DNA from: an uncultured Burkholderiales bacterium
GTDB taxonomy: Bacteria; Actinomycetota; Acidimicrobiia; IMCC26256; BP-133
Direction: 5' to 3'
Length of the DNA: 48,214 nucleotides
Assembly: GCA_964502185.1 (NCBI GenBank)
Contig: CAZCVW010000001.1
Location: 1-48,214, forward strand
Part shown: one piece after another, positions 12,421 to 45,770 of the stretch
How the letters are laid out: each line of letters begins with the position of its first letter
How positions within the stretch are numbered: the first letter of the stretch is position 1
Program-made: the position numbers and the translations under genes
Notes under the pieces: generated by a model
Seen by the model: only the letters and a program-made list of their open reading frames with translations
Database searches by the model: none
Told to the model about the DNA's origin: nothing

Positions 12421-13584
12421 ATGGCCGATGGCGCATATCGAGAAGCGGGAGGGAAGCGGACCGGCAAGAAGTCCGTGTACTGGCGGGCCCGCTACCGCGA
12501 CCCCACGGGGCGTGAGCGCGTCAAGAACTTCGAGCGTCGGGTGGACGCCGAACGCTTCCTCACCACCATCGAGGCCGACAAGCTCCGGGGTGGCTGGGTC
12601 GATCCCGCGTTGGCCCGCCGGCTCTTGAGCGAGGTCGCCGAGGAGTGGCAGCGATCCCAGGTCCATCGTCCTTCGACGGCCGTCCAGGTCGAGACGCATC
12701 TTCGCCGCCACATCGTCTCCCAGTTCGGTGACCGGGCGATCGGCTCGATCCGGCCGAGCGAGATCCAGGCCTGGGTCAAGGAGCGCAGCGGGATCCTCGC
12801 CCCGGCGACGGTCACGGTTATTTACCGGTACTTGTCGGCGATCTTCCGCATGGCGGTGCGAGATGGACTCATCGCCAAGTCCCCTTGCGTCGATGCCCGC
12901 CTGCCCAAGATTGAGAAACCACGGGTGTCCCCGATGACGGTGGACCAGGTCGAGGCCCTGCTGGAGGCGATCGACCCGCGCTACCGGGGACTGGTGGCGC
13001 TCGGCGCCGGCGCCGGTCTACGCCAAGGCGAGGCCTTCGGCATCACCGTGCCCCACATCGACTTTCTACGGCGGACGATCCACGTAGAGCAGCAGCTCAT
13101 GCTCCTGCCGAAGCAGCCGCCGTTTCTGGCCCCACCCAAGACGGCATCCAGCGACCGCCGTGTCCCCGTCGGCGACTTCGTCGTCCACGCTCTGGCCCGC
13201 CACATGCAGGAGTACCCGACTGCTCGTGCCCTGCGCGCCGTCACCCGCCGGGACGAACCACTGATTTTCACCAACAAGGCCGACAGCCCCCTGAGCCGAA
13301 CGTGGTTCTCAGCCAACGTCTGGCGGCCGGCCACCCGGCGCGCTGGCATCCCCGACGGCCTCACCTTCCACGACCTCCGCCATTTCTATGCCTCCCTGCT
13401 GATCAGCCGGGGATCTTCGGTGAAGGTCGTCCAGGCCCGCCTCGGTCACAAGAGCGCCGTCGAGACCCTCGACCCCTACGGGCACCTCTGGCCCGACGAC
13501 GAAGACCTCACCCGGCAGGCAGTGGACTCGGTGATGATCGGAAGCGGCGCAGGCACGCCGGAAATCGCTGACCTGGAGTCATAA
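12421..13584 (+). CDS. int: tyrosine recombinase / phage-type integrase
   Basis: The N-terminal arm (YWRARYRDPTGRERVKNF), catalytic GLRQGEA (R), HDLRHFYAS (HxxR) and ...DPYGHL (Y) are all present. In-frame ATG at 12421. Confidence 0.9.
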   Translation: MADGAYREAGGKRTGKKSVYWRARYRDPTGRERVKNFERRVDAERFLTTIEADKLRGGWVDPALARRLLSEVAEEWQRSQVHRPSTAVQVETHLRRHIVSQFGDRAIGSIRPSEIQAWVKERSGILAPATVTVIYRYLSAIFRMAVRDGLIAKSPCVDARLPKIEKPRVSPMTVDQVEALLEAIDPRYRGLVALGAGAGLRQGEAFGITVPHIDFLRRTIHVEQQLMLLPKQPPFLAPPKTASSDRRVPVGDFVVHALARHMQEYPTARALRAVTRRDEPLIFTNKADSPLSRTWFSANVWRPATRRAGIPDGLTFHDLRHFYASLLISRGSSVKVVQARLGHKSAVETLDPYGHLWPDDEDLTRQAVDSVMIGSGAGTPEIADLES

Positions 13585-17284: not shown

Positions 17285-17584
17285 GTGGTCCCATGTGGTC
17301 CCGAGGCCCCCGTGGTGGCGCCAATCCGGCGGGAGCTGCAGCGTGGGCAAGGACTCGCAGCCCTTGTCGGACAGTACATTATCGGTCCACGTCGGAAACG
17401 AAGCGTTTGTGCTGGTCAGAGCGGGTGGTGGCGAGTCGGCCGATCTGCCGGACAATGTCAGGCGCTCGTCGCTGACTTGCGGAAACGGGCTGATTCAGCT
17501 CTTGACCTGCGGAAAGACATTGTTGTCATTTGTGGACCGCTGGGTTCGGTTGTGGCGCTCTCGTGGTCCCCATGTGGTCCCGGC
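17285..17584 (+). repeat. structured intergenic unit C2
   Basis: Same layout as C1: GTGGTCCC double box (17285-17305), degenerate a-box (17404-17419), hairpin TCGGC-cgatct-GCCGG (17436-17451), boxes at 17472-17487 and 17502-17517, ATTGTTGTCATTTGTGGAC (17519-17537) and a GTGGTCCC double box (17563-17584). Confidence 0.8.
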
Positions 17585-17611
17585 AAGGGGCCGGGCGCCC
17601 CAGATGGGCCG

Positions 17612-17995
17612 ATGCTGCATGATGGTGTCGTGAGCGCAAGACCGGAGTTCGGGCCGCGTGGCGGCTGGTACGCCCCGTACCGAACGATTCACGTTGCGTC
17701 TGATCTCGACGCACTGCGTGCTCCCGTGAAGGGGAAGGTCCGACTGCCGCTCCATCTCGACGCCTCGGCGCAGGCGGAGTACGACCTGGCTGACGCTCGC
17801 CGCCGCTCGGTGTTGTACGAGGTCGTGATCATCGAGGCGTGGAAGGACGAAGACTTCGAGGCTTGGCTCAACCGGGATGCGCTGATCGAGGCGTGGCCAA
17901 CGTTGTACCTCCCCCGCCAAGTACGCGCGGCGTGGGAGACACGCCACCCCGTTCTTCGTGCCCAGGGAGCCGGCCCGGACGTGCCCCGGCCGTAG
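17612..17995 (+). CDS. small protein upstream of AbiEii, putative non-canonical antitoxin
   Basis: 127 aa from the ATG at 17612. Its TAG is immediately followed by the GTG of the AbiEii-like gene (TAGGTG at 17993-17998). No wHTH was recognised. Confidence 0.5.
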   Translation: MLHDGVVSARPEFGPRGGWYAPYRTIHVASDLDALRAPVKGKVRLPLHLDASAQAEYDLADARRRSVLYEVVIIEAWKDEDFEAWLNRDALIEAWPTLYLPRQVRAAWETRHPVLRAQGAGPDVPRP

Positions 17996-18699
17996 GTGGC
18001 CATCGATCCGTTCCAGGCGGAGGTAGCCCGTATCGCGCTGGATGTGGCCGGCCCGCAAGGGTTTGCGCTGGCTGGCGGGAACGCCTCGTCGCGCACGGCA
18101 TCGTGCAACGCCCGACGAGGGACGTCGACCTGTTCAGCAACGACGTGGGCGGGCCTGGAGCTGTGACCGCCGCTGTCCAGGCGGCTCTGGAAGCCGCCGG
18201 TTATCAGGTTCTGATCACCCGTCCCCCGGAACTGAACCAGGGGGAGTTCTCCCAGATGGTGGTCAGCCGCGGTGACGACTCCATGCAGCTCGACTTGGCC
18301 CGTGACTGGCGTCGGTGGCCACCGGTCGAACTCCAGGTCGGTCCCGTGCTCCACCTGGACGACGCAGTGAACTCCAAGGTCAACGCCATGGTTGGCCGCG
18401 GCGCTGCCCGAGACTTTATCGACGTCGCCGCCGCCATTGGCTATGGCTACAGCCGGGCCGAACTGCTGCGTCTCGCCTTTACTCGCGACCCTGGCCTACG
18501 GGTGCTCGACTTCGCGTACGCCATGCACCAGCTCGACCGGTTCGGCCCCGAGGCGTTCGTCGACTACGGCCTTGACGGCGATGCGGTATCCGGGCTGCGC
18601 TCCCGCTTCGCCGACTGGCCCCGCCATGAGGAGGATGACCAAGAAGGCCAGGCTCTCCATGCCGCCGTCGCCGATGAGGAGCGACGCAGAAGAGAGTGA
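17996..18699 (+). pseudogene. AbiEii/AbiGii-family nucleotidyltransferase toxin, one frameshift
   Basis: VAIDPFQAEVARIALDVAGPQGFALAGGNA in one frame continues as LVAHGIVQRPTRDVDLF... in the next. The break is at a CC/CCC run near 18085 (AACGCCTCGTC where AACGCCCTCGTC is expected). Confidence 0.7.
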
Positions 18700-26738: not shown

Positions 26739-27227
26739 ATGCGGTGGGATGTGGGCAGGACCGCCATGCAGTTCCTCATGGAGCGCAACCGGATCGAGCC
26801 GATCGCGGTCTCCGATCCGGAATCCGATTGCGGGGCCCTGCTGAACCGGGCCAAGAAGCGTCTGGCGACGGCCAACGCGGCGCTCGTTGGCGAAGACAAC
26901 GAAGGCGCCTTCGCCAATGCCTACGACGTCTACCGGATGGGCGCCGAGTGCCTGCTTTTACGGCAGGGCTTGCGGGCGACGGGCGGAGAGGGGTCGCACA
27001 TGGCAGTGGAAGACGCGGTGGCGGCCCAGTTCGGGGACGCGGTCAAGGAGTACGCAAAGCCGCTGTTCCAACGGTTCCGTCAGGGCCGGCACGCGTCGCA
27101 GTACTTCGATCCGTCTCTGCCGGAGAAGACGCAGGACGACGCCCGCTGGGCGGTCGAGACGGCCGAGCGCGCGCTGCGCGGAGTTGAGGACGTTCTGGCC
27201 TCGGGTGGGCTTGGCCTTTACGGCTGA
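26739..27227 (+). CDS. HEPN domain protein (SAV_6107-like)
   Basis: 162 aa, helical, with an R-x5-H motif in FQRFRQGRHASQYF. Confidence 0.65.
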   Translation: MRWDVGRTAMQFLMERNRIEPIAVSDPESDCGALLNRAKKRLATANAALVGEDNEGAFANAYDVYRMGAECLLLRQGLRATGGEGSHMAVEDAVAAQFGDAVKEYAKPLFQRFRQGRHASQYFDPSLPEKTQDDARWAVETAERALRGVEDVLASGGLGLYG

Positions 27228-27826
27228 GGGTCGTCGCGCCGGAGGGCGACGGGAACGAGGGGGCGGGAGGTGATCGTCCGGTGGAAGGTCCCCGAGCCCT
27301 CGTCGAGCCAGGACGGGGGCCGGATGGTGACCTCGACCTCGCGCCCGAGGCGGGCCGAGGCCGAAGCAAGGGCGTGGAACAAGGCGTCACGATCCGGCTC
27401 GCCTAGCACGAGCAGATCGATGTCACCGACCGGGCGCTCGCCTTCGTTGCCTTCGAAGCGGTCCGCCCACGACCCGTAGATGAACGCTTCGTCGATGCCG
27501 TCCAGCGCAGCGAGCGCCTGGCCGATCACTGTCGGCGGGCCGAACGCCTTGGTGAGGACGTCGCTCAGTCCAGCGAAATAGGGGCTGGCCGTGTTGGCCT
27601 TCACCAGTCGGACGTTGCCCAGCTTCCGGCTCTTGACCAGCCCCGCCCGCTCGGCCCGGTCGATCTCGCGATGAACTGAGGGGTAAGGGATCCCGAGCCG
27701 CTCGGCCAGAGCGGCTAGCGGTGACTCCGCCTCCGGCTCGCCGAGCACGGCAGTGAGGATGGCGGCCTGCTGGCGGGACCGGAGGAGGGGGAGGAGGGGG
27801 GGTGTGGCCCCCCGGCGTGTATCCAC
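27218..27826 (-). CDS. wHTH (ArsR-like) plus minimal nucleotidyltransferase (MNT) fusion
   Basis: An HTH (LAALAERLGIPYPSVHREIDRAERAGLV) is followed by the NTase motif GSWADRF...GDIDLLVLG. The GTG at 27826 is the chosen start. Confidence 0.75.
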   Translation of the reverse strand: MDTRRGATPPLLPLLRSRQQAAILTAVLGEPEAESPLAALAERLGIPYPSVHREIDRAERAGLVKSRKLGNVRLVKANTASPYFAGLSDVLTKAFGPPTVIGQALAALDGIDEAFIYGSWADRFEGNEGERPVGDIDLLVLGEPDRDALFHALASASARLGREVEVTIRPPSWLDEGSGTFHRTITSRPLVPVALRRDDPQP

Positions 27827-27854
27827 AGATTGGATTATAACTCTCAATTTGTGG
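27823..27854 (-). promoter_or_regulatory. operator dyad overlapping a TATAAT box and the start codon
   Basis: CCACAGATTG / CAATTTGTGG (9 of 10 complementary) flank a TATAAT (minus strand, 27839-27834) that lies 7 nt from the GTG. This suggests a leaderless or short-leader autoregulated promoter. Confidence 0.5.
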
Positions 27855-28056
27855 ACAGGTGGTTCCCTCTGTTTCACGGCCAGAGCGCTTTCGGCGATCC
27901 CGTCGTGCGACTCGTGGTGTCGCGCGCCAGGGTGATGGGGCAACCCTGAGGCCAGTGTCCGAACTGGCCGGCTGAGTTCCCGCAGTTGCGGCCGGCCGGC
28001 ATCCGGCGGGCGACCGATGCCGAACTGGTCCGCTCGTCACCGGCGAGCACCCGCCT

Positions 28057-28311
28057 GTCAGCGACGCACACGCTCCGTGGTTCCTTCCGCTGACATTTCG
28101 CTGACATCGAGGGTCGACATCACTGTATGTCCGCAGGTCACAGGCATAAATGGTGGCGAGCCGGCCTGTACGCCGGAAACTGTTGCCGGGGTCTCCCTGA
28201 CCTGCGAGTTTCCCGAGGAACCGGCTCTGACCTGCGAAAAGATCTGTCTGTAGTTACAGCGTTGTGACGGTGGTTTTCGGATCTCCCGCTCCCAACGGAC
28301 TCCCAACGGGA
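28057..28311 (+). repeat. structured intergenic unit C4
   Basis: Contents in order: inverted TCAGCG box (28057-28066), Y double box (28088-28109), a-box TGTCCGCAGGTCAC (28128-28141), hairpin CCGGC-ctgtac-GCCGG (28161-28176), CTGACCTGCGA boxes (28197-28208 and 28227-28241) and double box CTCCCAACGG x2 (28288-28311). Confidence 0.8.
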
Positions 28312-28608
28312 TCCTTATCGGCTTTCCCGTTTGGGCAACGGCCAGGCACGCCGAGATCTGCCGGGTTTTCCGCGTCTGACCGTGGCGGGATGCTTCGATT
28401 CCTCTCGCCTGGGGCTGCCCAGGCCCTTCGACGGGTCGGTTGGAAGCGGTTACCTCGGCCCTTCGTTCCCGAGCGTGCGAGGCGTGTACGTCGTTCCAAC
28501 GTCGTCTCCGGACCCCATCCCGCCCAGGACTCTCGGGTATTGCGCCGGCATGAAGAAATTCTGGTATACTGTCCTTCACCCCAAGGTTGAAGGTAAGGAA
28601 GCCAGACC

Positions 28609-28911
28609 GTGAGGGTCGAGTTCGAGGATGACGACCTACGGCGCCTCTACACGGATCCAGGGTTTCGGATCCGGCAGTTCGGCCCGGACGTGACAGCAGC
28701 ATTCAGGAAGCGGATGGCGGTGTTGGTTGCCGCCAAAGATGAACGTGATCTCTATGCCTTGAAGTCGTTGCACTTCGAGAAGCTATCGGGTGACCGGCTC
28801 GGTCAGCGGTCGATACGGCTCAACAAACAGTGGCGCCTGATCTTCCGGATGGAGGAGGACGAAGGTGGTCGGCTGGTGATCGTGGTCGAGATTACCGACT
28901 ACCACCACTAG
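28609..28911 (+). CDS. higB: HigB-type toxin (plasmid maintenance system killer, RelE/ParE superfamily)
   Basis: 100 aa. ...LKSLHFEKLSGDRLGQRSIRLNKQWRLIF... is a typical HigB core. GTG start with AAGGAAG upstream. Confidence 0.85.
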   Translation: MRVEFEDDDLRRLYTDPGFRIRQFGPDVTAAFRKRMAVLVAAKDERDLYALKSLHFEKLSGDRLGQRSIRLNKQWRLIFRMEEDEGGRLVIVVEITDYHH

Positions 28912-28926
28912 AGAGGAGGGAGTTCC

Positions 28927-30006
28927 TTGAGTGCCAACGACGTGATCACGCCAGCGGAGGTTTTCCCTCCTGGTGAGTTCATCCGTGAGGAGCTAGAGGA
29001 ACGCGGCTGGTCAGAGGCCGAGTTCGCGCAGATTCTTGGCCGCCCGGTGCAAGTGGTGTCGGAGATCCTCAACGGCAAGAAGGAGATCACGGCCGAGACC
29101 GCCCTCGTCTTCGGCATGGCGCTCGGCACAAGCGCGGAGTTGTGGTTGAACTTGCAGGCGGCGTACCGACTCCACCTCGTGCGCTCGCAGGAAGCAGGAA
29201 CGACCGCCGTCGCTCGCCGGGCCCGTCTTCGTACTTTGGTCCCGGTCCGGGAGCTGCAGAAGCTCCGGTGGCTACCGGAGACGGATGATCTGGACGTTCT
29301 CGAAGCTGCGGTCTGCGAGTTGGTGGGGATCGGAGCGCCGCATGAGGAGCCATCATTCACCGCTGCCGCGCGGCGGGTGAACGCGACCATCGACTTCACC
29401 CCGGAGCAGGTGGCGTGGATTGCCCGGGTGAGGAAACTGGGCGCTGGTCGAGGGACGGTGCCGTTCGACTCAGCACACCTGGCGGAGTTGGGCGTGTCGC
29501 TGGTCGGAAGGATCCGCGATCCCTATGACCTCTCGAACCTTCAGAGATGGCTGGCGGAGTACGGCGTTGCACTGGTGATCGAACAGTCCTTGAAGAGCAG
29601 CAAAATCGATGGGGTCGTACTGTTCGTCGATGGATCTCCGATCGTCGGCTTATCGACGCGTGGTGATCGGATGGATGGTTTCGTGTTCACGCTCCTTCAC
29701 GAACTTGCGCACCTTGTGCTCGGCCACATCGCTCCCGGTGACATTTATCTCGACGAAGATGTCGCGTCCGACGATGAGGCTGACGTCGAAGTTGCCGCCA
29801 ACGACTTGGCGGGGTCATGGATCTTGCCGAAGGAAGTCTCGGTCGGCCCGAGTCCGCCCAGGATGCCGGCGATCCTGGCTGCTGCTCGTCAGTACGGTGT
29901 GCATCCCTCATTCGTGATCGGTCGTCTCCAGAAGGATGGGCGGCTTGGTTGGGGGGATCTGCGTCGCCACATCCCCAAGGTTCGTCCGTTTGTTGAGTTT
30001 GGTTGA
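28927..30006 (+). CDS. HigA-type XRE HTH antitoxin fused to an ImmA/IrrE zinc metallopeptidase
   Basis: N-terminal HigA-like HTH (WSEAEFAQILGRPVQVVSEILNGKKEITAETALVFGMALG) and a C-terminal HExxH (LLHELAHLVLGH). Confidence 0.85.
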   Translation: MSANDVITPAEVFPPGEFIREELEERGWSEAEFAQILGRPVQVVSEILNGKKEITAETALVFGMALGTSAELWLNLQAAYRLHLVRSQEAGTTAVARRARLRTLVPVRELQKLRWLPETDDLDVLEAAVCELVGIGAPHEEPSFTAAARRVNATIDFTPEQVAWIARVRKLGAGRGTVPFDSAHLAELGVSLVGRIRDPYDLSNLQRWLAEYGVALVIEQSLKSSKIDGVVLFVDGSPIVGLSTRGDRMDGFVFTLLHELAHLVLGHIAPGDIYLDEDVASDDEADVEVAANDLAGSWILPKEVSVGPSPPRMPAILAAARQYGVHPSFVIGRLQKDGRLGWGDLRRHIPKVRPFVEFG

Positions 30007-30016
30007 GGTGCCGGCC

Positions 30017-31042
30017 ATGACTGTCGCCGCCCGAGCGCTTCCGAGGACGCTCAGCACGTCGTTCTCCTTCTATGTGCCGGCCTCGAAGCCGGGGCTCATT
30101 GCCGCCGCCGCCGAGTTGGCGGACGGGGTCACTGTGCGGGGAGCGAACGGTCCTTCCGTAGCCCGGCAGGCGCTCGGGGTGGACTGGGCGGGTTCACTGC
30201 TGTTCGACGGTGCCGGTTACGAGGAGGGCGCGCCTAGGATCGACGCCAAGGCGTGGTTTGATGCACAAGCCGACGCCGGTGCCGACCGGCTCATCACGCC
30301 CGGCCGCTGGGTCCCATGGGATGGCGGAGGCGACGCACTTGCCCAGGCAATCGACGCCGAGCGGAATGCGGGAGCCTCGTCGCCCGGGTCGACGGTGCTT
30401 CTCGCGGTGGATAGCCGGTGGCTCGGACGGGCTGCTAGAACGGTCATCGATCGTCTCCAAGATGTCGGGCAGCCAGTGGCGCTCGTGCTTGCTCACCAGG
30501 GCGATCCGCTGAGCGGCACGGGGGTGCTCGACGGACTCTTGGCCCTTCTCCGTACCCAAGAGCTCACGCTGCTGAGGTCCGACCACGGTGCGATCGGGGC
30601 CGTTGCTTTCGGCGCGGCACACGGATCCGTCGGCCTACGGGCCACATACCGGCATTTCGTTCCTCAAGGCGCAGCAGCCCGTCACAATCCTAAGGATCGA
30701 ACACCGCGGGTGTTTGTCTGGGACCTGTTGGACTGGTTCACGGCGGCGAAGATCGCCGGATGGGGCGCAAGCTCAATCAACTTCGATTGCCGCTTCGCAT
30801 GCTGCGATGGCGCCAGAATCGACCGTTTTCTTGACCCCCAGTTCGAGAACCAGGCTGAAGTCCACAATCGCACGACCCTCGCCTTCCTCGCTGAGCACAT
30901 CCTGGGGGACGCACCTGAGGGTCGGCGTCGATCCTTTGCGCGGCTCTGCTCCGCAGCCGTGGACCGCTATGGCCCGATGGGGAAGATGTCGGATCTGATC
31001 GAGCCGAAGGCTCAGCTCCTGCAATGGGCACTGTGGGCATAG
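30017..31042 (+). CDS. hypothetical protein with tRNA-guanine-transglycosylase-like motifs
   Basis: 341 aa, starting 10 nt after the ImmA gene. WAGSLLFDGAGYE (30185-30223), FDCRFACC (30782-30805) and a downstream EVHN. The CDS call is firm; the fold assignment is tentative. Confidence 0.6.
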   Translation: MTVAARALPRTLSTSFSFYVPASKPGLIAAAAELADGVTVRGANGPSVARQALGVDWAGSLLFDGAGYEEGAPRIDAKAWFDAQADAGADRLITPGRWVPWDGGGDALAQAIDAERNAGASSPGSTVLLAVDSRWLGRAARTVIDRLQDVGQPVALVLAHQGDPLSGTGVLDGLLALLRTQELTLLRSDHGAIGAVAFGAAHGSVGLRATYRHFVPQGAAARHNPKDRTPRVFVWDLLDWFTAAKIAGWGASSINFDCRFACCDGARIDRFLDPQFENQAEVHNRTTLAFLAEHILGDAPEGRRRSFARLCSAAVDRYGPMGKMSDLIEPKAQLLQWALWA

Positions 31043-31641
31043 AGCCACCGCTCGTAGGCCAACTCGGCCACCCACCACCGGTATACAGCCGGCGAGCCGA
31101 GGATCGGTTGAGACGGTTCGACCTTCACCTCATATCGGCCTGAATGCAGAGCCGCGAGCCCAACGCGTCGCCGATGAGCTAAGCCGATCGCTTCACCACC
31201 CGGTTCTTCTCCGGCGACCGCGAGTCGCGGAAATATCGGCGGAACATGGGACAGGCGTTGGATAGCGTCCTCGGCGCGGCGGTCCGCCACGATCGCGATC
31301 CCCACCGAGCCTGCTGGTCGGAACCTCCGCAGCAGTTGCCCGCCCACACGGTCGACAAGCAGTTTGCCATGTTGCCGGAGAGTGGTCGCATCGATCTCTG
31401 CCAGGCTTGATTGCTCGACGGGCTCACCCCCAGGCAAGGCCCAGAGCGCATGCAGCAACCGACGGTCCACGATCGCGCCGAGGCCTAACTCGACACGTCG
31501 GCAGTGCTCGTGCTCGTCGACCGAAAGACCCGCGATCCATGTGTCGCCATCCACATCAACGTGGACAAGCTCGCCATCAGCGCTGAGGCCGGGCAGAGCC
31601 TGCAGATCAACGATTCCAGGCGATTGGCCTACGCGGCTCAC
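31012..31641 (-). CDS. hypothetical protein (209 aa)
   Basis: GTG at 31641 overlaps the TGA of the upstream wHTH gene (GTGA at 31638-31641). Confidence 0.6.
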   Translation of the reverse strand: MSRVGQSPGIVDLQALPGLSADGELVHVDVDGDTWIAGLSVDEHEHCRRVELGLGAIVDRRLLHALWALPGGEPVEQSSLAEIDATTLRQHGKLLVDRVGGQLLRRFRPAGSVGIAIVADRRAEDAIQRLSHVPPIFPRLAVAGEEPGGEAIGLAHRRRVGLAALHSGRYEVKVEPSQPILGSPAVYRWWVAELAYERWLYAHSAHCRS

Positions 31642-31943
31642 GATCTTCCGGCCCCGATTTCGTCGGCGGTCGTCCACAGTGAGGACGGCGCAGGTGCGTA
31701 CCAACGCTCACGGTGGTCATCGCCGTCGCGGCCAGTCGGGATGAGGAGTCCCAGCGCCAGCAGCCGCTTGAGCGGGGCGCTGTAGAGCGAGGCCGAGCTG
31801 ACCTCGTTCTCGGCCACTAACTCGGACAGTGTGGCTCGGTCGGTGACCCGACTCAACGTGAGGCAGACCTCGAGCATGTAGCTGTTGCCAAAGAGACGCT
31901 TGGACCTTGCTCGGATGCCATCATCCACACCTACATCATACAT
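31638..31943 (-). CDS. winged-helix (MarR/ArsR-like) DNA-binding protein
   Basis: 101 aa with ...ATLSELVAENEVSSASLYSAPLKRLLALGLLIP... An AT-rich promoter with a palindrome lies at its start. Confidence 0.6.
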   Translation of the reverse strand: MYDVGVDDGIRARSKRLFGNSYMLEVCLTLSRVTDRATLSELVAENEVSSASLYSAPLKRLLALGLLIPTGRDGDDHRERWYAPAPSSLWTTADEIGAGRS

Positions 31944-31970
31944 GATTCATGAAACATAGAATATATTGCG
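31942..31970 (-). promoter_or_regulatory. AT-rich palindrome overlapping the start codon
   Basis: ATGATTCATGAAACAT (14 of 16 palindromic, core TTCATGAA) followed by AGAATATATT. This is the lowest-GC spot of the island. Confidence 0.45.
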
Positions 31971-32063
31971 AGCCCGACGTGGAAGGCTCGCCTGTTGTTC
32001 AACACGCCGGGCCCTCCACAAGTGGATGCCGCTCGGTTCCCGGCTCGAAGACCTGAGGGTTCG

Positions 32064-32465
32064 TCAGTCCTGCCGTCCACCGAAGCTACGTGTGCTCCTG
32101 GAGGTCGTGGCCCTGAACGGGTGGCCCGGCTCGGGGACGTTGCTGATGGGCCCTGTTCCGGGCGAGAGCAATACAGACACCCAGCGCGGGAATTCGATGG
32201 TGCGCGTCCGCCGCCGCCAGGCGATCTTGGCTTGGAGGCCCTCCCAGTTCAGGGGGGCGCCGGGCACGGTGAACGGGTCGCGCCAATCTGCGTCCCAGAG
32301 CGCTCGAACCTCAGCTCCGGCCCGCTTCCAACGGCAGAGCGTGTTCCTGGCGCGGTGGAGATTGATCTTGGAGCGCGTGACGGTGTCGCCGCAGTCGGGA
32401 CAGTCGACCAGCCAGTCATCTACGCCCAGCTCGCGCTCAAGCTCGTCATAGCCATCAGCGGTCAA
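32064..32465 (-). CDS. small zinc-ribbon protein
   Basis: 133 aa with CPDCGD...(17)...C. The C-terminal third is compositionally poor. Confidence 0.45.
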   Translation of the reverse strand: MTADGYDELERELGVDDWLVDCPDCGDTVTRSKINLHRARNTLCRWKRAGAEVRALWDADWRDPFTVPGAPLNWEGLQAKIAWRRRTRTIEFPRWVSVLLSPGTGPISNVPEPGHPFRATTSRSTRSFGGRQD

Positions 32466-32480
32466 GGCCTTGTCGAAGGC

Positions 32481-32876
32481 CTAGGGTCCGAGGTGTTTCA
32501 CGGCCGCCATGACGGTGTAAACCCATCGCCGGGAGGGAACGCCCTCGAGCGGCGAGCGGACAACGATGCCTTGCAGCACTTCGTACCGCATGCGCTCGCC
32601 CGACCTGAGGCGGAGCACCGTGTCGTGCGTTATGTCGAACGGCCTGATGTGGACAGCTGGTAGCCGCTCACCGAAGAGGACCGCGGCTGGTTGGGGAACG
32701 AGTGCCGAGTCCTCGACATCGTCGACCCAGGGCTTGCCTCGGCAGCGACCGAGGTTGACATGTGTTTCGACGGCCCGTGGATGCAGCCACGACTCGCATC
32801 CGCCGGGGCAGCGTGCCGTGAGGTAGCGGCACGGGGTGATGAACCGGCCTCTTCCGCTTCTCGGGATGCCTGACAT
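32481..32876 (-). CDS. small Cys/His-rich protein
   Basis: 131 aa with C-x6-C-x3-C...H...H...C near the N-terminus. Confidence 0.45.
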   Translation of the reverse strand: MSGIPRSGRGRFITPCRYLTARCPGGCESWLHPRAVETHVNLGRCRGKPWVDDVEDSALVPQPAAVLFGERLPAVHIRPFDITHDTVLRLRSGERMRYEVLQGIVVRSPLEGVPSRRWVYTVMAAVKHLGP

Positions 32877-32942
32877 GGTTGCCTCCTCGTAGGTTCAGAC
32901 CCATCGCCCGCCTGCAATACGTGTGACGTTGCGCCAGCACCC

Positions 32943-33004
32943 TCAACGAGAACCTCAACGGCGATATCAACGGACACCCACTCAACGGAAGCTGCCCTCA
33001 ACGG
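32943..33004 (+). repeat. iteron-like array, 5 x TCAACGG
   Basis: TCAACGA/TCAACGG boxes start at 32943, 32955, 32967, 32982 and 32998, in the divergent region between the Zn-finger operon and the ParB-like gene. Confidence 0.75.
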
Positions 33005-33464: not shown

Positions 33465-34787
33465 ATGCTCCAGACCATCCCCATCGAGAAGATCAGGCCG
33501 GCCAAAGACAATGTGCGGCGGCGCACAACGGAGATCCGGGATCTGGCGGCCAGCGTGGCCAGCGTCGGGGTGATTGAGCCGCTCCTTGTCACCCCCACGG
33601 ACGATGGCACCTTTGTCGTCGTCGCCGGACATCGCAGGCTCCTCGCCGCCCGACAGGCTGGACTGGTCGAGCTGCCCTGCACCGTGCGGGAGCTGACCGA
33701 CGCCGAGCGGATCGAAATCATGTTGGCGGAGAACGTCGCTCGCTGCGCGTTGACTCCGATCGAGGAAGCGTCGGGGTACTTCAAACTCATCGAGTTCGGG
33801 CTCCCCTTGGCCGAGATCGGGCGGCGGATCGGACGCTCAGCCCGCCACATCAGCGCACGCTTGGCCCTCCTCGAACTGCCGCGCACGGTGCAAACCAAGA
33901 TCGAGAACGGGAAGGTCACGGTGGCCGAGGCGACTGCGCTGCTGGCCATCAAGGAACACCCCGACCTGATCGACGGGCTGTTGGAAGACGAGTGGAGCCG
34001 AGGCGACCTGGAGCGAGCGGTCGTGCGAGAGACGGCCCGGATCGAAGCCGAGGCGAAGGTGACCGCCGCCAGGGAGGGGCTCGAGGCCGAAGGCATCGCA
34101 ATCGTCGAGCAGTGGACCCGTTACGGTGGCCGCTCCCGCCAGCCGGTGGCCATTGGGAGTGGCCATGGCGAGATCGACGTGGAACCGGCTCGGCACCGGC
34201 GCGAACCCTGCCACGTGGGCCATGTCACCCGCTCCGGGGAGGTGGTGTTGCTCTGCACCGATCCGGGTCGGCACCGTCCGGGGGGAGAAAGCGGAGTCGA
34301 GGTCCCGCCGGGCGCGGCACCGACTCGAACCGAGGAACGGGCCGCCGAGCGGGACGAGACGAAGCGCCGCCGGCAAGAGGAGCGGGACCGTCTGGCATTC
34401 GTGGCCGGTCTGGTGATGCGACGGCTGCCCAGGGGTGACACCGCAGCTTTGGTGGTGAAACAGTTTCTCGCCGCGGCCAAGAGTGCCCAGGCACGGACGG
34501 CGTGTGATCTCCTGGGCATCGAGCCCGTCCAGGACAGTTACGGGCCGGATCATCGGGCCGCCCTGGAGAACCACGCTGCCAGCTCGACGGTCAACCGGGA
34601 CCGGGCGGCTCTCGCTCTCGCCCTGGCCGCAGGGGAGGAATCCCTGCGCTACGCAGCGCCGGGTCGATTGACCGTAGCTGCGCGAGCCCACGTCGATTTC
34701 CTGGCTACCTACGGGTGGCGCGACCCTGACGCGTCGGAAGCTCCTGAGCCGTCCTCGGTGGAGGAGAACGATGACTCCGCCGCCTGA
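33465..34787 (+). CDS. ParB/Srx-domain (ParB-like nuclease/partition) protein
   Basis: IPIEKIRPAKDNVRR...VVAGHRRLLAA...LAENV, followed by an HTH. AAGGAGA RBS. Confidence 0.85.
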   Translation: MLQTIPIEKIRPAKDNVRRRTTEIRDLAASVASVGVIEPLLVTPTDDGTFVVVAGHRRLLAARQAGLVELPCTVRELTDAERIEIMLAENVARCALTPIEEASGYFKLIEFGLPLAEIGRRIGRSARHISARLALLELPRTVQTKIENGKVTVAEATALLAIKEHPDLIDGLLEDEWSRGDLERAVVRETARIEAEAKVTAAREGLEAEGIAIVEQWTRYGGRSRQPVAIGSGHGEIDVEPARHRREPCHVGHVTRSGEVVLLCTDPGRHRPGGESGVEVPPGAAPTRTEERAAERDETKRRRQEERDRLAFVAGLVMRRLPRGDTAALVVKQFLAAAKSAQARTACDLLGIEPVQDSYGPDHRAALENHAASSTVNRDRAALALALAAGEESLRYAAPGRLTVAARAHVDFLATYGWRDPDASEAPEPSSVEENDDSAA

Positions 34788-36252: not shown

Positions 36253-36332
36253 TCGCGTGTCGGGTTCCGGCCTCGCCATGCGCATAGGGCCCCGTGGAGG
36301 CGAAGGGCGTCTCCGCAGGAGGACCCCGACCC

Positions 36333-39300
36333 GTGCTCAACATCGGCCGGCTCAGTCCCGGCGCCGCCGACTATTACCTCGATGAGGTGGCCACCTCGCC
36401 GGAGTCGTACTACCTCGGTCACGGCGAGGCCGCCGGGCGCTGGGTCGGTTCGCTGGCCGAGCAGCTGGGCTTGCGGGGCGAGGTCGGGGAAGGTGAGTTT
36501 CGGGCGCTCCTCGACGGGCGGCACCCGAAGACGGGCGAGCAGCTCCTCTCCGGCCGAGGCTCGTCCGGGCGGAGCTGGCGTCAACGATCCTCCTCCGATC
36601 CCCGCCAGGGTTCGCTCCTCCACGACGACCTTCTCGACGTACCTCGGGTGGCGGCTCGCCTCAAGCTCACGACCCGCCGGGTGCGCCAGCTCCTGTGCGC
36701 CGGCGAGCGCCAGCCACGGACGGGGAAGCGTTGTCGGCTCTTCCTGGTGGGTGAGCGTGCCCGGGAGGCTGGATCCACCCGCCCAGCCGCGTGGGTCGTC
36801 CGCCGGGCCGAGGTGGAGCGCTTCGAGGCTGTCCATCGGTCAACCAAGGCCCGGCCGGGTTACGACCTCACGTTGCGCCCGCCGAAGAGCGTGAGCATCC
36901 TCTGGGCGCTGGGCACCGAGGAGCAGCGCCGGGCTGTCCGCCAGGCTCACCGTGAGGCCGTCGACGCCGTGGTCGACTACTACGAGGCCCACGCCGTCTA
37001 CGCCCGCCGTGGTAGCCGCGACCGGGGTCGGATCGAGACCGAGGGTCTCGTGGCGGCCGCCTTCGATCACCGCACCAGCCGGGCCGGTGATCCACTTCTC
37101 CACAGTCACGTGGTCGCGGCCAACATGACCCTGACCGCTGAGGGGCGCTGGCAGGCCGTGGAGGGACGGGCGCTCTACGAACACGCCCACTCGGGCGGCT
37201 TCCTCTACCAAGCCCACCTCCGCCACGCCCTGACCGCCGCCCTCGGCGTGCGTTGGACCACGGTGAGCAAGGGCTGCGCCGAAGTCGAGGGTGTCCCCCA
37301 ACCGGTCATCCGGGCCTTCTCCAAGCGCCGGGACGAGATCGAGGATCTGGTGGCCGAGTCGGGTTGGACCTCGCCCCGGGCCCACCAGGCCGCCGCCCTC
37401 GCCACCCGGGCGCCGAAGGACCACCTCACCGACGCCGCCACCCTGGAGGACGGATGGCGGGCCGAAGCGGCAGAACTCGGGTTCGGACCCGAGGACGTGG
37501 CCGCCTGCTTCGGCACGCCCAGGATTGTCGAGGAGCCCGACGTGGAGGCCCTCTTCGAGGCCATGGGCGGCTCGCAGGGGCTCACCGCCCAGGCCAGCAC
37601 GTTCACCCGCCGGGACGTGGTCGAGGCGCTGGCCGCCGGCCTCTCGGCGTCGGCGGATGCCCGCCGGGTCGAAGCGCTGGCCGACCGGTTCCTGGCCTCG
37701 GCCCGAGCGCAGCCCCTCACCGGCACGCCGGGCCGGGACAGCGACCTGGTTTGGCGGACGGGCGGCGGTCGAGAACGCTCCCCGGACCTCGCCCGGTTCT
37801 CGACCCCCGAGCTCCTCGAGGTCGAGGCGCGCCTCCTCGACTGGGGCCGGGAAGGCTTCGGGCCGGCGGTCCCGGTGGCCTCTCCCGGCGCGGTCGATGA
37901 GGCGTTGCACCTCCGGCCCGAGCTGAGCGACGAGCAGCGGGCCATGGTCCAGGGCGCGTGCACCTCCGGGCGCTCGATGCAGGCGGTGGCCGGGCGGCCG
38001 GGGGCGGGGAAGACCCACGCCGCCGCCGCCTGTGTCGAGGCCTTCGTCGCCTCAGGCGTTCCCGTTGCCGGCTGCGCCCTCTCGGCCACCGCCGCCGCCC
38101 AGCTCGAGTCCGCCACCCGACTCGAGGTCCTCACCGGCCGCCCGGCCACCACCATCGCCCGTCTCCTGCTCGACGTGGAGGGCAACGGGCCGCTCCCGCC
38201 GGGAACGGTCCTGTTCGTGGATGAAGCCTCCATGGTCGGCACCCGTGACCTGGCCCGCCTCGCCGGCCACGTCGCTCGGGCGGGTGGAGCGCTCAAGCTG
38301 ATCGGTGACCCCGACCAGCACGGCCCGGTGGAGACGGGGGGAGTCTTCCGGGTGCTGGTGGCCGAGGCGGGCGACGATCTCGTGTCCCTCGTCGAGAACC
38401 ACCGGCAGATCGAACCGGAGGACCGCCGGGCGATCGAGGAGTACCGCCAAGAACTCGTGGAGTCGGCCCTTGCCCGCTACGACGCCGCCGGGAAGGTCTT
38501 CCGCTCCCCGGACGCCACCGCCAGCTACGACGCCATGGTTGCCGATTGGCTGGACGGGCGGCGGCGGGGCGTGGCCGACCCGATGATCGCCGGGCCCAAC
38601 CGGGTGCGGCGCGCCCTCAACGCCCGGGCCCGCCAGCGTCTCAAGGCCGAGGGTGACCTGACCGGCCCGGCCGTGGTCGTCGACGGGCGCGAGTTCTGCG
38701 TCGGCGACTGGGTGGTGACCCGCCACAACGCCCGGTCCCTTTGCAATCCGGACACGGGCGCCTTCGTCAAGAACGGCAGCGTCGGGACGGTCACCGCCGT
38801 CGACCCGGAGGCCCGGACCCTCACCGTTGAGTTCGCCTCCGAGGGCCGGATCACCCTGCCCGCTCCGTACATCGACGGCGGATGGGTCGAGCACGGCTAC
38901 GCCCGCACGACCTATGGGGTGCAGGGCACCACCCTCACGAGAGCGCTCTACCACCCAGGCGACGCCTCGTCGTTCGAGGAGGGCTACGTGGCCCTCACCC
39001 GGGGCGGGGCCGAAACCCGGATCTACATCGTGGACGGCGCGCTCGTCCCCGACGAGGAGGTCGGTCACCGGGCGCATGACCCCGAGGAGCGCGGCCTCGA
39101 CACCGTCTGCCAGGCCCTCGAAGCGCGCCGATCCAAGACGCTCGCCCACGAGGCCGACCCGACCGCCACCGTGGTACGAAACCTCTTCGACGGCTGGGAT
39201 CTCCAGGCCCTACGCAAGGAGCGCAAGCGCCTCGAAGCCGTCCTCTGGCGAGCACCAGCCAGCGTCGACCAGGCCCTCCAGGCGGCCATCCTGAGACGCG

Positions 39301-39803
39301 ACGCCCTCCTCGCCCAGCGCCAGGCGTGGACCCGCCGCCTCGAACAACCCAACCTGCGGACCGGGCACCCAAGAGCCAGAGCACGCACGAGGAACGCGAC
39401 GCCCCGCCGTGAACTCGAACGCATCGAACGCGCCATCGTCGCTGTCGATGCTCGCCTGGCCGCCATCCGAAACCGGCATGCCACCAGACAGGCTTACCTC
39501 GGTGCGCACGCCGAGGAGACGAAGCGACTCGGCCTCGTGCGGCGGGCGGAATCGGCCAGGGAACTGAAGGTCCGGGTCGAGGCCGCCGTCCGACTCGGGT
39601 GCCCCGAGATCTTCCACGCTGCCAGCGAGCGAAATCTCGCCCGTCACAACGCCGAGCGTGCCCTCCTCGAGGCTGAGCGCCGGGGAAGCACGGCCACAGG
39701 CGCCGCTCCGCTGGACTCGCTCTACGAGGAGACAGCCCGCCGCCGACCCGTTCGACCAGCCACCGCCGAAGTCGTCGGGCCCGACGAGCCCTCACTCTTC
39801 TGA
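36333..39803 (+). CDS. MobF (TrwC/TraA-type) relaxase fused to a RecD-like helicase
   Basis: GTG at 36333 lies 8 nt after GCAGGAGGA. Relaxase motifs include FDHRTSRAGDPLLHSHVV. Helicase P-loop GRPGAGKT. Confidence 0.9.
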   Translation: MLNIGRLSPGAADYYLDEVATSPESYYLGHGEAAGRWVGSLAEQLGLRGEVGEGEFRALLDGRHPKTGEQLLSGRGSSGRSWRQRSSSDPRQGSLLHDDLLDVPRVAARLKLTTRRVRQLLCAGERQPRTGKRCRLFLVGERAREAGSTRPAAWVVRRAEVERFEAVHRSTKARPGYDLTLRPPKSVSILWALGTEEQRRAVRQAHREAVDAVVDYYEAHAVYARRGSRDRGRIETEGLVAAAFDHRTSRAGDPLLHSHVVAANMTLTAEGRWQAVEGRALYEHAHSGGFLYQAHLRHALTAALGVRWTTVSKGCAEVEGVPQPVIRAFSKRRDEIEDLVAESGWTSPRAHQAAALATRAPKDHLTDAATLEDGWRAEAAELGFGPEDVAACFGTPRIVEEPDVEALFEAMGGSQGLTAQASTFTRRDVVEALAAGLSASADARRVEALADRFLASARAQPLTGTPGRDSDLVWRTGGGRERSPDLARFSTPELLEVEARLLDWGREGFGPAVPVASPGAVDEALHLRPELSDEQRAMVQGACTSGRSMQAVAGRPGAGKTHAAAACVEAFVASGVPVAGCALSATAAAQLESATRLEVLTGRPATTIARLLLDVEGNGPLPPGTVLFVDEASMVGTRDLARLAGHVARAGGALKLIGDPDQHGPVETGGVFRVLVAEAGDDLVSLVENHRQIEPEDRRAIEEYRQELVESALARYDAAGKVFRSPDATASYDAMVADWLDGRRRGVADPMIAGPNRVRRALNARARQRLKAEGDLTGPAVVVDGREFCVGDWVVTRHNARSLCNPDTGAFVKNGSVGTVTAVDPEARTLTVEFASEGRITLPAPYIDGGWVEHGYARTTYGVQGTTLTRALYHPGDASSFEEGYVALTRGGAETRIYIVDGALVPDEEVGHRAHDPEERGLDTVCQALEARRSKTLAHEADPTATVVRNLFDGWDLQALRKERKRLEAVLWRAPASVDQALQAAILRRDALLAQRQAWTRRLEQPNLRTGHPRARARTRNATPRRELERIERAIVAVDARLAAIRNRHATRQAYLGAHAEETKRLGLVRRAESARELKVRVEAAVRLGCPEIFHAASERNLARHNAERALLEAERRGSTATGAAPLDSLYEETARRRPVRPATAEVVGPDEPSLF

Positions 39804-40339: not shown

Positions 40340-41500
40340 GGGGGCGGTGCTGCGCTGCCTGCCTGGTTCACCGGCCGCTGGGATCGGTTATGCGGCGAGA
40401 TCGAGGTGGGTCTCCATGTCCAAGGCGAAGCGGCCGTAGGGGTTGACGTGGGTCCAGAACAAGGGGGACAACCCCCGGCGGTCCTCGCCGGTCAAGCGGG
40501 ACGCCCAGGACTGCTCGGCGAGGACCCGTTGGATCAGGAGAGAGTGTCGTGGTACACGAGCGCGGATTGCAGGAGGTGCAGGTGTTGAGCATGGAGACCT
40601 CTTGGTGTTCCCGGTCAGCCCCGGTGAGCTCGCTCTCCCTGCCGAAGTAGAGGACGGTATTGGCGCTGTTCCAGTTCTCGATGACCTGGAGGCCCTCGTG
40701 GATCTCCCGGCGCAGGGCAGGGTCGGCGAGGTAGTTGCAGATGAAGATGGTTCGGGCGACCCGACCGAGCTCCTCGACGGCGGCGTGGGTGGGGTGCTTG
40801 GGACCGCCCCGGGTGAATCGGCGAAGCACCTGCTCGGCCTCGGCGGTGCCCAGACGCAGGGCGGTGGCGTACTTGACGAGCTGGTCGTACTGGCGAGCGA
40901 TCAGCTCCCAGTCGATGGGCCGGGTAAGCACCCGGCCCAGCCGGGGCCAGGCCTCGTCACCGGGCCCGGGGCGATACAAGCGGGCCGACGCGATGTTCTT
41001 GAGGCGGGGCAAGAGCTGGAAGCCAAGTAGGTGAGCGAAGGCGAAACCCACCACCGAGGCGCCGTGGGTGTCGACGTAGTTGCGCTCCACCTCGGCCGAC
41101 GTGCAATGCCGGAGCACCCCCTCGAGTATGGCGGCGACCTCGGACGCCGAGCACGCCTTGAGCTGGCTGTAGATGCAGACACTCTTGCGTTCGACGTGCC
41201 AGTAGATCATGACCCCGGGCCCCCAGTAGCGGTTGTGCCACTCGGTCATCAGGTTGGCGTCCCAGGCACCGAACTTCTTCGAATCCGACGCGCACGCCGT
41301 CCCGCTACCCCACAGACCCTGGTCACGAGCCGCGAAGGTGGCGTCCACGAGGCGCACGATCGCCCGGCGCAGGTTGTCCCGGTTGACGTAGAGACGCCGC
41401 ACGTGACGCAACACCGCCTCGCTGTCCCCGACGTCGGCGGCTTCGACAAGATTTGGCCCCGGGCTGGGGGCTCGGCCACCGGCGACGGCGGTCGTCGTCT
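40340..41500 (-). mobile_element. Tn3-family transposon remnant (C-terminal third of TnpA, frameshifted, N-terminus deleted)
   Basis: ...[15 protein letters not shown]...[11 protein letters not shown]...YVDTHG...[12 protein letters not shown]... is the Tn3 DDE region. The tail [50 protein letters not shown] (stop at 40388) is reached only through two frameshifts near 40585 and 40540. A candidate terminal IR starts with GGGGG at 40340. Confidence 0.75.
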
Positions 41501-41629
41501 ATGAGGTAGACCGGGGTCGGAAAACGGGCCTAGGCCATTCGGGATCAATGGTCAAGGAGTTGCCCGAATGTGCCGATAGTTTGGAGGACAATTCGTGTGA
41601 GGGTCACTCGACCCTGGCGATGCGTTCTT

Positions 41630-41717
41630 AGCGACAACGGTAAACCCGGGGAAACCCGGGGACACAAAGCCACGGGTCTAATCCGCGACCAGCGGTATGG
41701 CAGCCGGGCCGCCGAAC
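41630..41717 (+). ncRNA. c-di-GMP-I (GEMM-I) riboswitch
   Basis: ACGGTAAACC-[CCGGG-GAAA-CCCGG]-GGACACAAAGCCACGGG...CCGCGACCAGCGG...GCCGGGCCGCCGAAC follows the Vc2-type consensus GGCAAACC-hairpin-GGGACGCAAAGCC. It sits 12 nt upstream of a GGDEF-EAL gene. Confidence 0.8.
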
Positions 41718-41728
41718 TAGGAGCACCC

Positions 41729-44312: not shown

Positions 44313-45770
<1,458 letters not shown>

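Follow-up and report, generated by a model that had tools for sequence, protein, structure and literature searches.

A stretch of 48,214 nucleotides (nt) from an uncultured bacterium (contig CAZCVW010000001.1 of assembly GCA_964502185.1; the whole stretch is hereafter called the window) contains a compact group of five genes, designated g1 to g5. The first three are co-directional and encode a HigB-type toxin, a HigA-type helix-turn-helix (HTH) protein fused to an ImmA/IrrE metallopeptidase, and a zinc-motif protein with a predicted fold like that of the tRNA-guanine transglycosylases (TGT). The gene g4 converges on g3 and overlaps its end, and g5 encodes a small putative regulator. Our preferred reading, to which we would give an even chance of being correct, is that the locus is a mobile conflict module of four to five genes, serving defence or addiction, in which a switch of the PD-lambda-2 type has been combined with an older g3/g4 pair.

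Association of g3 with g4 and with the HigB and HTH-protease genes

The most faithful partner of g3 is g4. Searches by tblastn and hidden Markov model (HMM) recovered it from the corresponding position in each of the 20 genome loci and in 30 of 31 metagenome loci long enough to include it, which makes 50 of 51 sampled loci in which g4 accompanies g3. The overlap of the two genes ranges from 8 to 53 nt in intact related loci and is most commonly 28 nt. This conserved convergent gene had been missed by the first-pass annotation of the window, which was made by a model from the letters of the DNA and described g1, g2 and g3. A convergent gene of 173-215 amino acids (aa) also occupies the g4 position in 9 of 11 distinct distant g3 contexts, with overlaps of 4-61 nt in the loci L022, L023, L025, L039 and L040, and five distant convergent proteins compared as a group are g4 homologues (hhalign probability 97%, E 6.7e-11).

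The genes g1 and g2 precede g3 in all 33 close-family loci with enough upstream DNA, and the conservation of g3 beside HigBA/ImmA genes, which the first-pass annotation had proposed to test, holds throughout the close family. Neither gene occurs in L066, L068, L070 and L073, which are more distant metagenome loci with upstream DNA, or in any gene-called distant context with upstream DNA except L040. In L040 (300-3791) a DUF6932 gene comes first, followed by a 474-aa HTH-M78 gene, a g3-like gene overlapping it by 4 nt and a convergent g4-like gene; this is a second pairing of g3 with an HTH-protease, behind a different first gene. The flanking genes of the module are otherwise not conserved in related loci. 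The HigB and HTH-protease genes are clade-specific, and g4 is retained by g3 in loci that have neither of them. The g3/g4 pair is older and more widespread than the switch and able to stand alone, and therefore probably has a self-contained activity.

An exhaustive profile search with g3 returned 654 clusters (50% identity) at E<=1e-3 and 556 at E<=1e-10. Full-length members of this superfamily are mostly about 340-390 aa long and are named 'hypothetical protein' in their sources. The genome hits are all in Actinomycetota, the close family mostly in Acidimicrobiia bins and the distant members in Nonomuraea and Microbispora, and a plasmid search for g3 relatives yielded only short HigA HTH similarities. 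Three of the 20 genome loci (L005, L012 and L020) have a broken g3 frame, with premature stops or split hits; these copies are either pseudogenes or assembly errors of the metagenome bins.

The predicted fold of g3

An AlphaFold2 model of g3 built on 51 homologues has a predicted local distance difference test score (pLDDT) of 94.4 and a predicted template modelling score (pTM) of 0.92. It displays eight alternating strand/helix units followed by a beta-hairpin, a cysteine cluster and long C-terminal helices. The seven best Foldseek matches in the PDB are all TGTs, aligned over the full length and 357-392 columns. The first six are entries of Zymomonas Tgt (5n6f and 2pot among them) with E from 7.5e-7 to 2.9e-6 and template modelling (TM) scores of 0.50-0.56, and the seventh is the Pyrococcus archaeosine TGT (ArcTGT; E 1.2e-4). 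Generic TIM barrels start at 3e-4 in the same list, with about 220 columns aligned. A TGT-like barrel had been anticipated in the first-pass annotation, and the structural comparison agrees with it. Among viral structures Foldseek returned no match with E below 1e-3; phage proteins annotated as queuine/queuosine tRNA-ribosyltransferases, which are probably of the DpdA type, match g3 weakly (E 3e-3).

The relationship is also seen when alignments are compared. An alignment of 76 superfamily members matched eight bacterial Tgt sequences by hhalign with E 6.1e-4 over 79 columns, while the reversed control gave 0.075 and eight column-shuffled controls gave 0.13-0.69. The homology between g3 and TGT rests on the fold and on two motifs.

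Motifs and candidate active site of g3

The first motif is the beta3 block WAGSLLFDGAGYE. Its D64 is invariant in the 51 homologues, is conserved in at least 90% of the superfamily and lies at the end of strand 60-64 in the model. The first-pass annotation had proposed a residue-for-residue alignment of this block with the nucleophile region of bacterial Tgt. E. coli Tgt does carry WKGPILTDSGGFQ, and in an extended hhalign alignment the g3 block VDWAGSLLFDGAGYEE falls exactly on Tgt MQWKGPILTDSGGFQV with a posterior of 6-9, placing D64 on D89 within the Tgt block W82-Q94. The alignment as such is sustained, but the name given to the region is not, since it holds the general acid/base aspartate (PMC10164549). 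D64 is the counterpart in g3 of this beta3 residue, which is D89 in E. coli Tgt, D102 in Zymomonas Tgt and D95 in DpdA. In one subclade (P0131, P0149, P0176, P0183 and P0190), in which L040 is included, Gln-His replaces the beta3 aspartate. The likeness of GADRLI in g3 to GSDIVM in Tgt, also proposed at first pass, is plausible: by eye and in a low-confidence hhalign alignment the two are in register, together with an invariant glutamine four residues upstream.

The second motif is the putative zinc site. The superfamily consensus reads CxCxxCxG...HN (C258-x-C-x2-C263-x19-H283), and g3 of the window uses C258, C262 and C263. C258 and H283 are invariant in both the close-family and the superfamily alignment, C263 is conserved to at least 90% in both and C262 to at least 90% in the close family, where H283-N284 is invariant. 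The hhalign alignment with E 6.1e-4 places C258, C263 and H283-N284 on the zinc ligands C302, C307 and H333-N334 of Tgt. The downstream H-N that had been pointed out in g3 at first pass is thus well founded, whereas the equation of NFDC with the DMFDC of Tgt has to be given up: D257 varies among the homologues, and C258, on Tgt C302, is the first cysteine of the zinc motif and does not correspond to the cysteine that follows the nucleophile Asp264. TGT and DpdA share a zinc site of the form CxCx2Cx22H and three invariant aspartates, for acid/base catalysis, base recognition and nucleophilic attack (PMC10164549). g3 is predicted to keep a structural zinc site of this type.

A third group of residues is the family's own. 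In the model the invariants D64, G96, W135, D163-P-L, R187/D189/H190, G206 and R212-H213 are located at or just after strand ends, and D163-P-L, R187-x-D189(-H190) and R212-H213 make up an invariant set at the C-terminal strand ends, where the active sites of TIM barrels are situated. Conservation of D64, D163, R187, D189, R212 and H213 extends across the superfamily at 25% identity. Judged from the model, g3 has the TGT fold and is probably still an enzyme, with a rebuilt pocket and not a canonical TGT. It is not to be filed as a member of the TGT or the DpdA family.

The putative HigB and HTH-protease switch

The order of g1 and g2, a HigB gene followed by a HigA HTH gene, is the layout of type II toxin-antitoxin (TA) systems of the HigBA kind; the extra 250-aa protease region of the g2 antitoxin is not canonical for HigA. 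g2 matches Pfam HTH_3 (1.1e-7) and Peptidase_M78 (2.5e-5) as well as the NCBIfam model antidote_HigA (6.1e-16, above its cut-off), and its HELAH motif is intact at residues 258-262 (29698-29712). The Pfam and NCBIfam matches uphold the identities assigned to g1 and g2 at first pass, and the coordinates of the three co-directional genes and the gaps between them, 15 nt from g1 to g2 and 10 nt from g2 to g3, were confirmed. Shine-Dalgarno-like sequences precede g2 (GAGGAGG) and g3 (GAGGTG), and the same gene calls for g1 to g3 are present, unnamed, in a public protein collection. A longer open reading frame (ORF) for g3 starting at ATG 29936 was rejected as the gene; the homologues begin at the methionine of 30017.

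Among the PADLOC models, g2 matches PD-Lambda-2_B at 3e-33 over residues 11-337 of 359, and the match to the Rosmerta RmrA models is much weaker (best E 6e-9). PD-lambda-2 is an experimentally validated abortive-infection system of three genes from E. coli (Vassallo et al. 2022, PMC9519451). Its HTH-peptidase B is toxic alone and is rescued by the HigB-like A, and its third gene, described as 'related to a P4 phage antitoxin', is required for defence and dispensable for neutralisation (PMC9519451). HTH-proteases of the ImmA type are hub antitoxins with many different toxin partners (PMC10440598). Because of the match to PD-Lambda-2_B and this precedent of hub antitoxins, g1 and g2, with HigB as a putative translation toxin, are read as a putative switch of the PD-lambda-2/Rosmerta type, in which g3 with its partner g4 would be a swapped-in third arm.

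The 665-nt stretch 5' of g1 (27944-28608) has no convincing gene, a lower G+C content (about 0.61) and unremarkable repeats. An extended -10-like sequence, TGGTATACT, was spotted in it by eye at 28562-28570. Searches in and around the module for Rfam families, tRNA genes and consensus promoters were all negative. The G+C content is 0.61-0.66 across 28001-33000, which includes the module and the DNA just after it, and is below that of most of the rest of the window.

g4 and its upstream regulators

The g4 family has the signature F/L-E-L-D-x-x-E-H-x-R-R ... L-L-H-A-L-W-x-L-P ... V-Y-R-W-W-x-A-E-x-A-Y. Fifteen members had no Pfam match, and a profile search of the PDB gave none either. The AlphaFold2 model of g4 has a pLDDT of 88.9, and its best Foldseek match in the PDB (E 0.025, TM 0.2) is not significant; hits to YaeQ and Can2 were set aside as too weak. 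Nothing could be learnt from the isoelectric points of g3 and g4, both of which are close to neutral.

The TGA stop of g5 overlaps the GTG start of g4 (GTGA), by which g5 is translationally coupled to g4. The match of g5 to MarR_2 is weak (0.011, under the cut-off). Homologues of g5 are found upstream of g4 in L002, L003, L005 and L017 (jackhmmer), and g5-type ORFs in L042, L044, L047 and L053 share the motif FGN-YMLEVC...RERWY in their translations. In L034 and L039 the genes upstream of g4 are of the Xre-type HTH class, with 4-nt overlaps, and other lineages have an HTH-like or ribbon-helix-helix (RHH)-like ORF there (ORF translations; sub-threshold or no Pfam match). A terminator-like hairpin lies just upstream of g5 (31991-31968, minus strand).

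A proposed mechanism and its alternatives

From gene structure, predicted folds, motif conservation, synteny and mobility we infer a scheme for the catalysis by g3 and its substrate, the parts played by g4 and g5, the trigger and a defence phenotype. In this scheme the target of g3 would be an N-glycosidic bond in tRNA or DNA, at which a base would be removed or exchanged, and g3 would keep the beta3 acid/base aspartate in a pocket that has been rebuilt; alternatively g3 may bind a base-like ligand. g4 would be its obligatory partner, either as an antagonist or immunity protein or as a target or specificity subunit, and g4 expression would be governed by a small DNA-binding protein, which is of different kinds in different lineages and would here be g5. 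In the clade of the window g3 would fill the slot of the accessory third gene of PD-lambda-2. Upon a trigger the HTH-protease would cease to repress or neutralise, with a joint increase in HigB activity and g3 expression as the result. One may go further and speculate that g3 and g4 are a new and widespread two-gene conflict system of Actinomycetota, in which a zinc enzyme of TGT fold would perform a novel reaction, the removal or exchange of bases in tRNA or DNA or possibly the modification of a protein, a partner of novel fold would check or direct it, and one clade would have been wired to a HigB/HTH-protease trigger of the PD-lambda-2 type. This wider proposal is tentative, and we consider it possible though on the unlikely side.

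Several results weigh against the interpretation of the module and of g3. At the level of the switch, g1 has no match to PADLOC PD-Lambda-2_A at E<=0.1, though its position is right, and g3 has none to PD-Lambda-2_C. No relatives of g3 were found in phage genomes (tblastn) or in IMG/VR viral contigs, and no link to phages emerged. The role proposed for g4, which has no recognisable fold, is a guess. The profile comparison with PF01702 and DpdA that the first-pass annotation had proposed went the other way, since g3 gave no hit at E<=0.1 to PF01702 or to any other Pfam, NCBIfam or PADLOC model, those of Dpd included. When 76 superfamily members were scanned singly there was no PF01702 hit at E<=0.01 and no relevant Pfam or PADLOC hit, and a profile of the 51 homologues found nothing among PDB sequences. 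The TM-scores of g3 with TGTs are about 0.55. The hhalign signal is modest, with a probability of 29% and coverage of the zinc subdomain alone, and against one single Tgt sequence the probability is only 2.6%.

To these are added the catalytic residues. For the base-recognition aspartate at the end of beta4 (D143 in E. coli, D156 in Zymomonas and D130 in DpdA) no equivalent is recognisable in g3. Placing Q84...G88-A-D-R-L-I-T-P-G96 on Q...G-S-D-I-V-M-x-F-D, an alignment made by eye and of low confidence, puts the invariant G96 at that position, where the superfamily has S, T or G. The nucleophile aspartate of beta8 (D264, D280 and D256, respectively) is not identifiable. The predicted beta8 of g3 (202-206, HGSVG) is without a conserved acid, its G206 is invariant, the hhalign alignment has low confidence there, and the closest invariant acidic residue, D189, lies where beta7 ends. 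Canonical transglycosylation by g3 is doubtful, because a one-to-one matching of its strands to those of Tgt, made by eye, puts invariant glycines, G96 and G206, at two of the aspartate positions. The TGT-like identity suggested for g3 at first pass thus has the fold, the zinc motif and the beta3 aspartate on its side, but no match to a family model, and only one of the three catalytic aspartates could be placed.

Four other explanations were weighed against the preferred reading of a conflict module in which a PD-lambda-2-type switch is joined to the g3/g4 pair. It is unlikely, in our view, that g3 and g4 are a TA-type pair, so that two stacked TA modules would mainly stabilise the element with no phage-specific role. 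Either g4 would be the toxin, with g5 or another small DNA-binding protein as antitoxin or regulator and g3 as a second neutraliser, or g3 would be a toxin damaging tRNA or DNA, with g4 as its antitoxin. The variable small DNA-binding gene that precedes and overlaps g4 is in the style of type II TA operons, and the many different toxin partners of ImmA-type antitoxins are compatible with such an arrangement. The module is also carried by elements resembling integrative conjugative elements (ICE) or actinomycete integrative conjugative elements (AICE), beside other TA modules, AbiEii and MNT/HEPN. The frameshifted g3 in L005, L012 and L020 would fit counter-selection of a toxic gene, although the frameshifts may be assembly errors of metagenome bins. 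The location of g3 and g4 on opposite strands is, however, unusual for TA, some loci have no DNA-binding ORF upstream of g4 (e.g. L065-L067 and L070), and g5 itself was found in the window and eight loci only. TA and defence functions are compatible with each other, so this explanation overlaps with the preferred one.

A minimal base-exchange system resembling restriction-modification (R-M) is distinctly unlikely. Here g3 would be a DpdA-like marker of host DNA, g4 the toxic or restricting part and g5 a C-protein-like regulator of g4, translationally coupled to it and convergent with the 'modification' gene, as in operons of the Esp1396I type. The convergent orientation of g3 and g4 with overlapping 3' ends is consistent with it, and in three lineages (the GTGA of the window, L034 and L039) a small HTH gene overlaps the start of g4 by 4 nt. 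The TGT superfamily contains DpdA, the DNA transglycosylase of the Dpd R-M system (PMC10164549). The L039 island holds HsdR and an integrase, and the weak Foldseek hits of g4, though not significant, include the restriction-endonuclease-like YaeQ and Can2. DpdA (7ui4) is nevertheless absent from the top 50 structural matches of g3 in the PDB, equivalents of its Asp130 and Asp256 were not found in g3, and neither preQ0/queuosine genes nor a DpdB-like partner are conserved beside g3. g4 has no PD-(D/E)xK motif or significant nuclease match, and the regulators upstream of it are of several unrelated types, which is more TA-like than C-protein-like.

g3 could also be an inactive scaffold or sensor of TGT fold that binds g4 or a phage product and signals to the HTH-protease, for which QTRT2 and Cap10 are precedents; we regard this as improbable. 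For two of the three canonical catalytic aspartates no counterpart can be recognised in g3, the subclade of P0131 and its relatives, L040 among them, has glutamine for D64, and the fold of Cap10 has been remodelled to hold a protein N-terminus (bioRxiv 10.1101/2025.04.06.647259). The strong polar conservation at the catalytic face of the barrel across a superfamily of 25% identity argues for chemistry over mere binding, and g3 retains the zinc subdomain, which stabilises the interactions of QTRT1 with nucleic acid and is lost in Cap10.

The plainer alternative of the first-pass annotation, in which g2 is the ImmR/ImmA-like induction switch of the element and g3 unrelated cargo, would suit an ICE-like window with integrase, ParB and relaxase and the standing of ImmA as the founding M78 anti-repressor protease, but is very improbable given that g1, g2, g3 and g4 occur together in 33 of 33 loci with all flanks differing, that the integrase is 15 kb and the relaxase 5 kb away from the module, that HTH and protease are fused behind HigB as in PD-lambda-2 and are not separate ImmR and ImmA genes, and that g3 begins 10 nt past g2 and its L040 counterpart overlaps the HTH-M78 gene.

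The carrier element and neighbouring genes

The coordinates of the module, its motifs and the neighbouring features are collected in Table 1. Taken together, the integrase, ParB, relaxase and transposase fragment point to an integrative conjugative or mobilisable element, and the module is placed in its cargo region. There is no tRNA gene in the window. No queuosine/preQ0 family was found among the window ORFs scanned, in agreement with the first-pass annotation, which had seen no such genes nearby. The ParB gene was considered as a DpdB-like partner and rejected, as it is not conserved in related loci.

Table 1. Features of the module and of the surrounding element (positions in the window).
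Feature	Position	Strand	Length	Match or remark
g1, HigB/RelE-like toxin	28609..28911	+	100 aa	Pfam HigB-like_toxin 3.1e-12
g2, HigA-type Xre HTH fused to ImmA/IrrE M78 metallopeptidase	28927..30006	+	359 aa	
g3, zinc-motif protein, predicted TGT-like (beta/alpha)8 fold	30017..31042	+	341 aa	unnamed superfamily
g4, convergent partner of g3	31012..31641	-	209 aa	family and fold unrecognised
g5, winged-HTH-like protein	31638..31943	-	101 aa	
Overlap of convergent g3/g4 3' ends	31012..31042		31 nt	
beta3 motif of g3	30185..30223	+		invariant D64 at 30206-30208
Zinc-site motif of g3 (predicted)	30788..30868	+		C258, C262, C263 ... H283-N284
Tyrosine integrase	12139-13584			
AbiEii nucleotidyltransferase toxin	17839-18699	+		Pfam 5.6e-6
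HEPN protein	26739-27227	+		PADLOC PDC-M05B 7.6e-9
MarR-HTH/nucleotidyltransferase-like (MNT) protein	27218-27943	-		PADLOC PDC-M05A 3.8e-45
ParB	33465-34787			
TrwC relaxase with helicase region	36294-39803			
Tn3-family transposase, truncated	40368-41414			

Directly upstream of the module, the HEPN and MNT genes make up a PDC-M05 candidate pair, convergent and overlapping by 10 nt, that is not conserved there in related loci. An ORF at 17285-17995, for which no Pfam hit was obtained, overlaps the AbiEii gene and may be its AbiEi partner. Outside the integrase, 2953-8745 on the minus strand encodes, in consecutive genes, a 737-aa TerB_N/TerB_C protein, a 455-aa ATPase of the BrxC/BrxD type (1.6e-154) and a 748-aa DEAD/Helicase_C protein, a trio that looks like a separate defence-type operon. 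Beyond the transposase fragment are a gene for a GGDEF-EAL protein of 847 aa (41570-44113, plus strand) and a response-regulator gene (44486-45175, minus strand), which are ordinary chromosomal or cargo genes.

The distant g3/g4 pairs of L022, L025 and L026, from Nonomuraea, Microbispora and one unassigned sequencing-run contig, are located among WhiB, GntR and NUDIX genes and many small ORFs, a setting that we take to resemble AICE of the pSAM2 type. In L039 the island around g3 and g4 also contains HsdR, a deaminase, DUF3631 and an integrase.

Comparison with known systems

The closest known system is PD-lambda-2, which likewise has a HigB-like first gene, a HigA-HTH/ImmA-IrrE second gene and a close co-directional third gene. 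Its third gene is related to a P4 antitoxin, whereas the module has a 341-aa protein of predicted TGT fold, and neither g3 nor g4 has a PADLOC match. The module differs further in that g1 is unmatched to PD-Lambda-2_A and in the extra convergent g4 and the regulator g5. PD-lambda-2 comes from Enterobacteria and the module from Actinomycetota. The combination of HigB with an HTH-protease is among the least understood of TA-like defence architectures, the 'antitoxin' of PD-lambda-2 being itself toxic. The locus described here shows the switch to be modular and able to carry a quite different third component, and the module would offer a tractable handle on ImmA-type signalling to effectors.

RosmerTA (RmrT/RmrA; PMC10440598) shares with the module an HTH-M78 antitoxin or regulator beside interchangeable toxin genes, but is a two-gene system, and neither the g3 nor the g4 family is represented among the RmrT toxins that PADLOC models describe. 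In the ImmR/ImmA switch of ICEs and prophages the HTH repressor and the M78 anti-repressor are separate proteins that control int/xis or transfer genes; here they are fused, and mobile between unrelated flanks.

With Tgt and ArcTGT (PF01702) the predicted structure of g3 has in common the (beta/alpha)8 barrel, the beta-hairpin, the Cys3-His zinc subdomain and the C-terminal helices, and the beta3 motif L-x-D-x-x-G-[YF] and the CxCxxC...HN motif of these enzymes are aligned with g3. In contrast to them, g3 is without the three-stranded lid insertion after beta3 and without identifiable counterparts of Zymomonas D156 and D280, and has the invariants D163-P-L, R187-x-D189 and R212-H213 of its own. 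Tgt is a housekeeping enzyme; g3 is not, nor is it beside queA or other que genes, and it is found on mobile elements with a dedicated partner.

Two members of the TGT superfamily act in conflict systems. DpdA, the DNA-guanine transglycosylase of the Dpd system and of phages (PMC10164549), retains the zinc site CxCx2Cx22H as g3 is predicted to do, but has preserved all three catalytic aspartates, depends on DpdB and on genes for preQ0 synthesis, and carries large insertions of its own. Cap10 belongs to type IV of the cyclic oligonucleotide-based anti-phage signalling systems (CBASS) and binds a nucleobase-tagged protein N-terminus (bioRxiv 10.1101/2025.04.06.647259). As is proposed for g3, this TGT-family protein has a repurposed site and an obligatory protein partner, in its case within an anti-phage operon. 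Cap10 has lost the zinc site and kept the base-reading Asp/Ser/Asp/Lys set and the catalytic aspartate, and g3 is predicted to be the reverse; the partners of Cap10, the QueC-like Cap9 and a CD-NTase, are both missing here.

The first-pass annotation knew of no described system in which a TGT-like enzyme is joined to a TA and protease switch. This has to be qualified as regards the components, since the class of switch is known from PD-lambda-2 and RosmerTA and TGT-family proteins in defence from DpdA and Cap10, and it holds for the exact combination: our literature search found no description of a TGT-like protein combined with HigB/ImmA or with TA systems, and the g3 superfamily, the g4 family and their combination were found in none of Pfam, NCBIfam, PADLOC 2.0 and the searchable literature. 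Already known, then, are the toxin and HTH-protease switch with a third gene and the occurrence of TGT-superfamily proteins in defence. New are two uncharacterised families, a large unannotated superfamily of transglycosylase fold and its obligatory partner, both confined to mobile elements of Actinomycetota. In the predicted g3 structure a third branch of the TGT fold in conflict systems is recognised, rebuilt differently from DpdA and from Cap10, which could reveal a new chemistry of nucleic acids or proteins.

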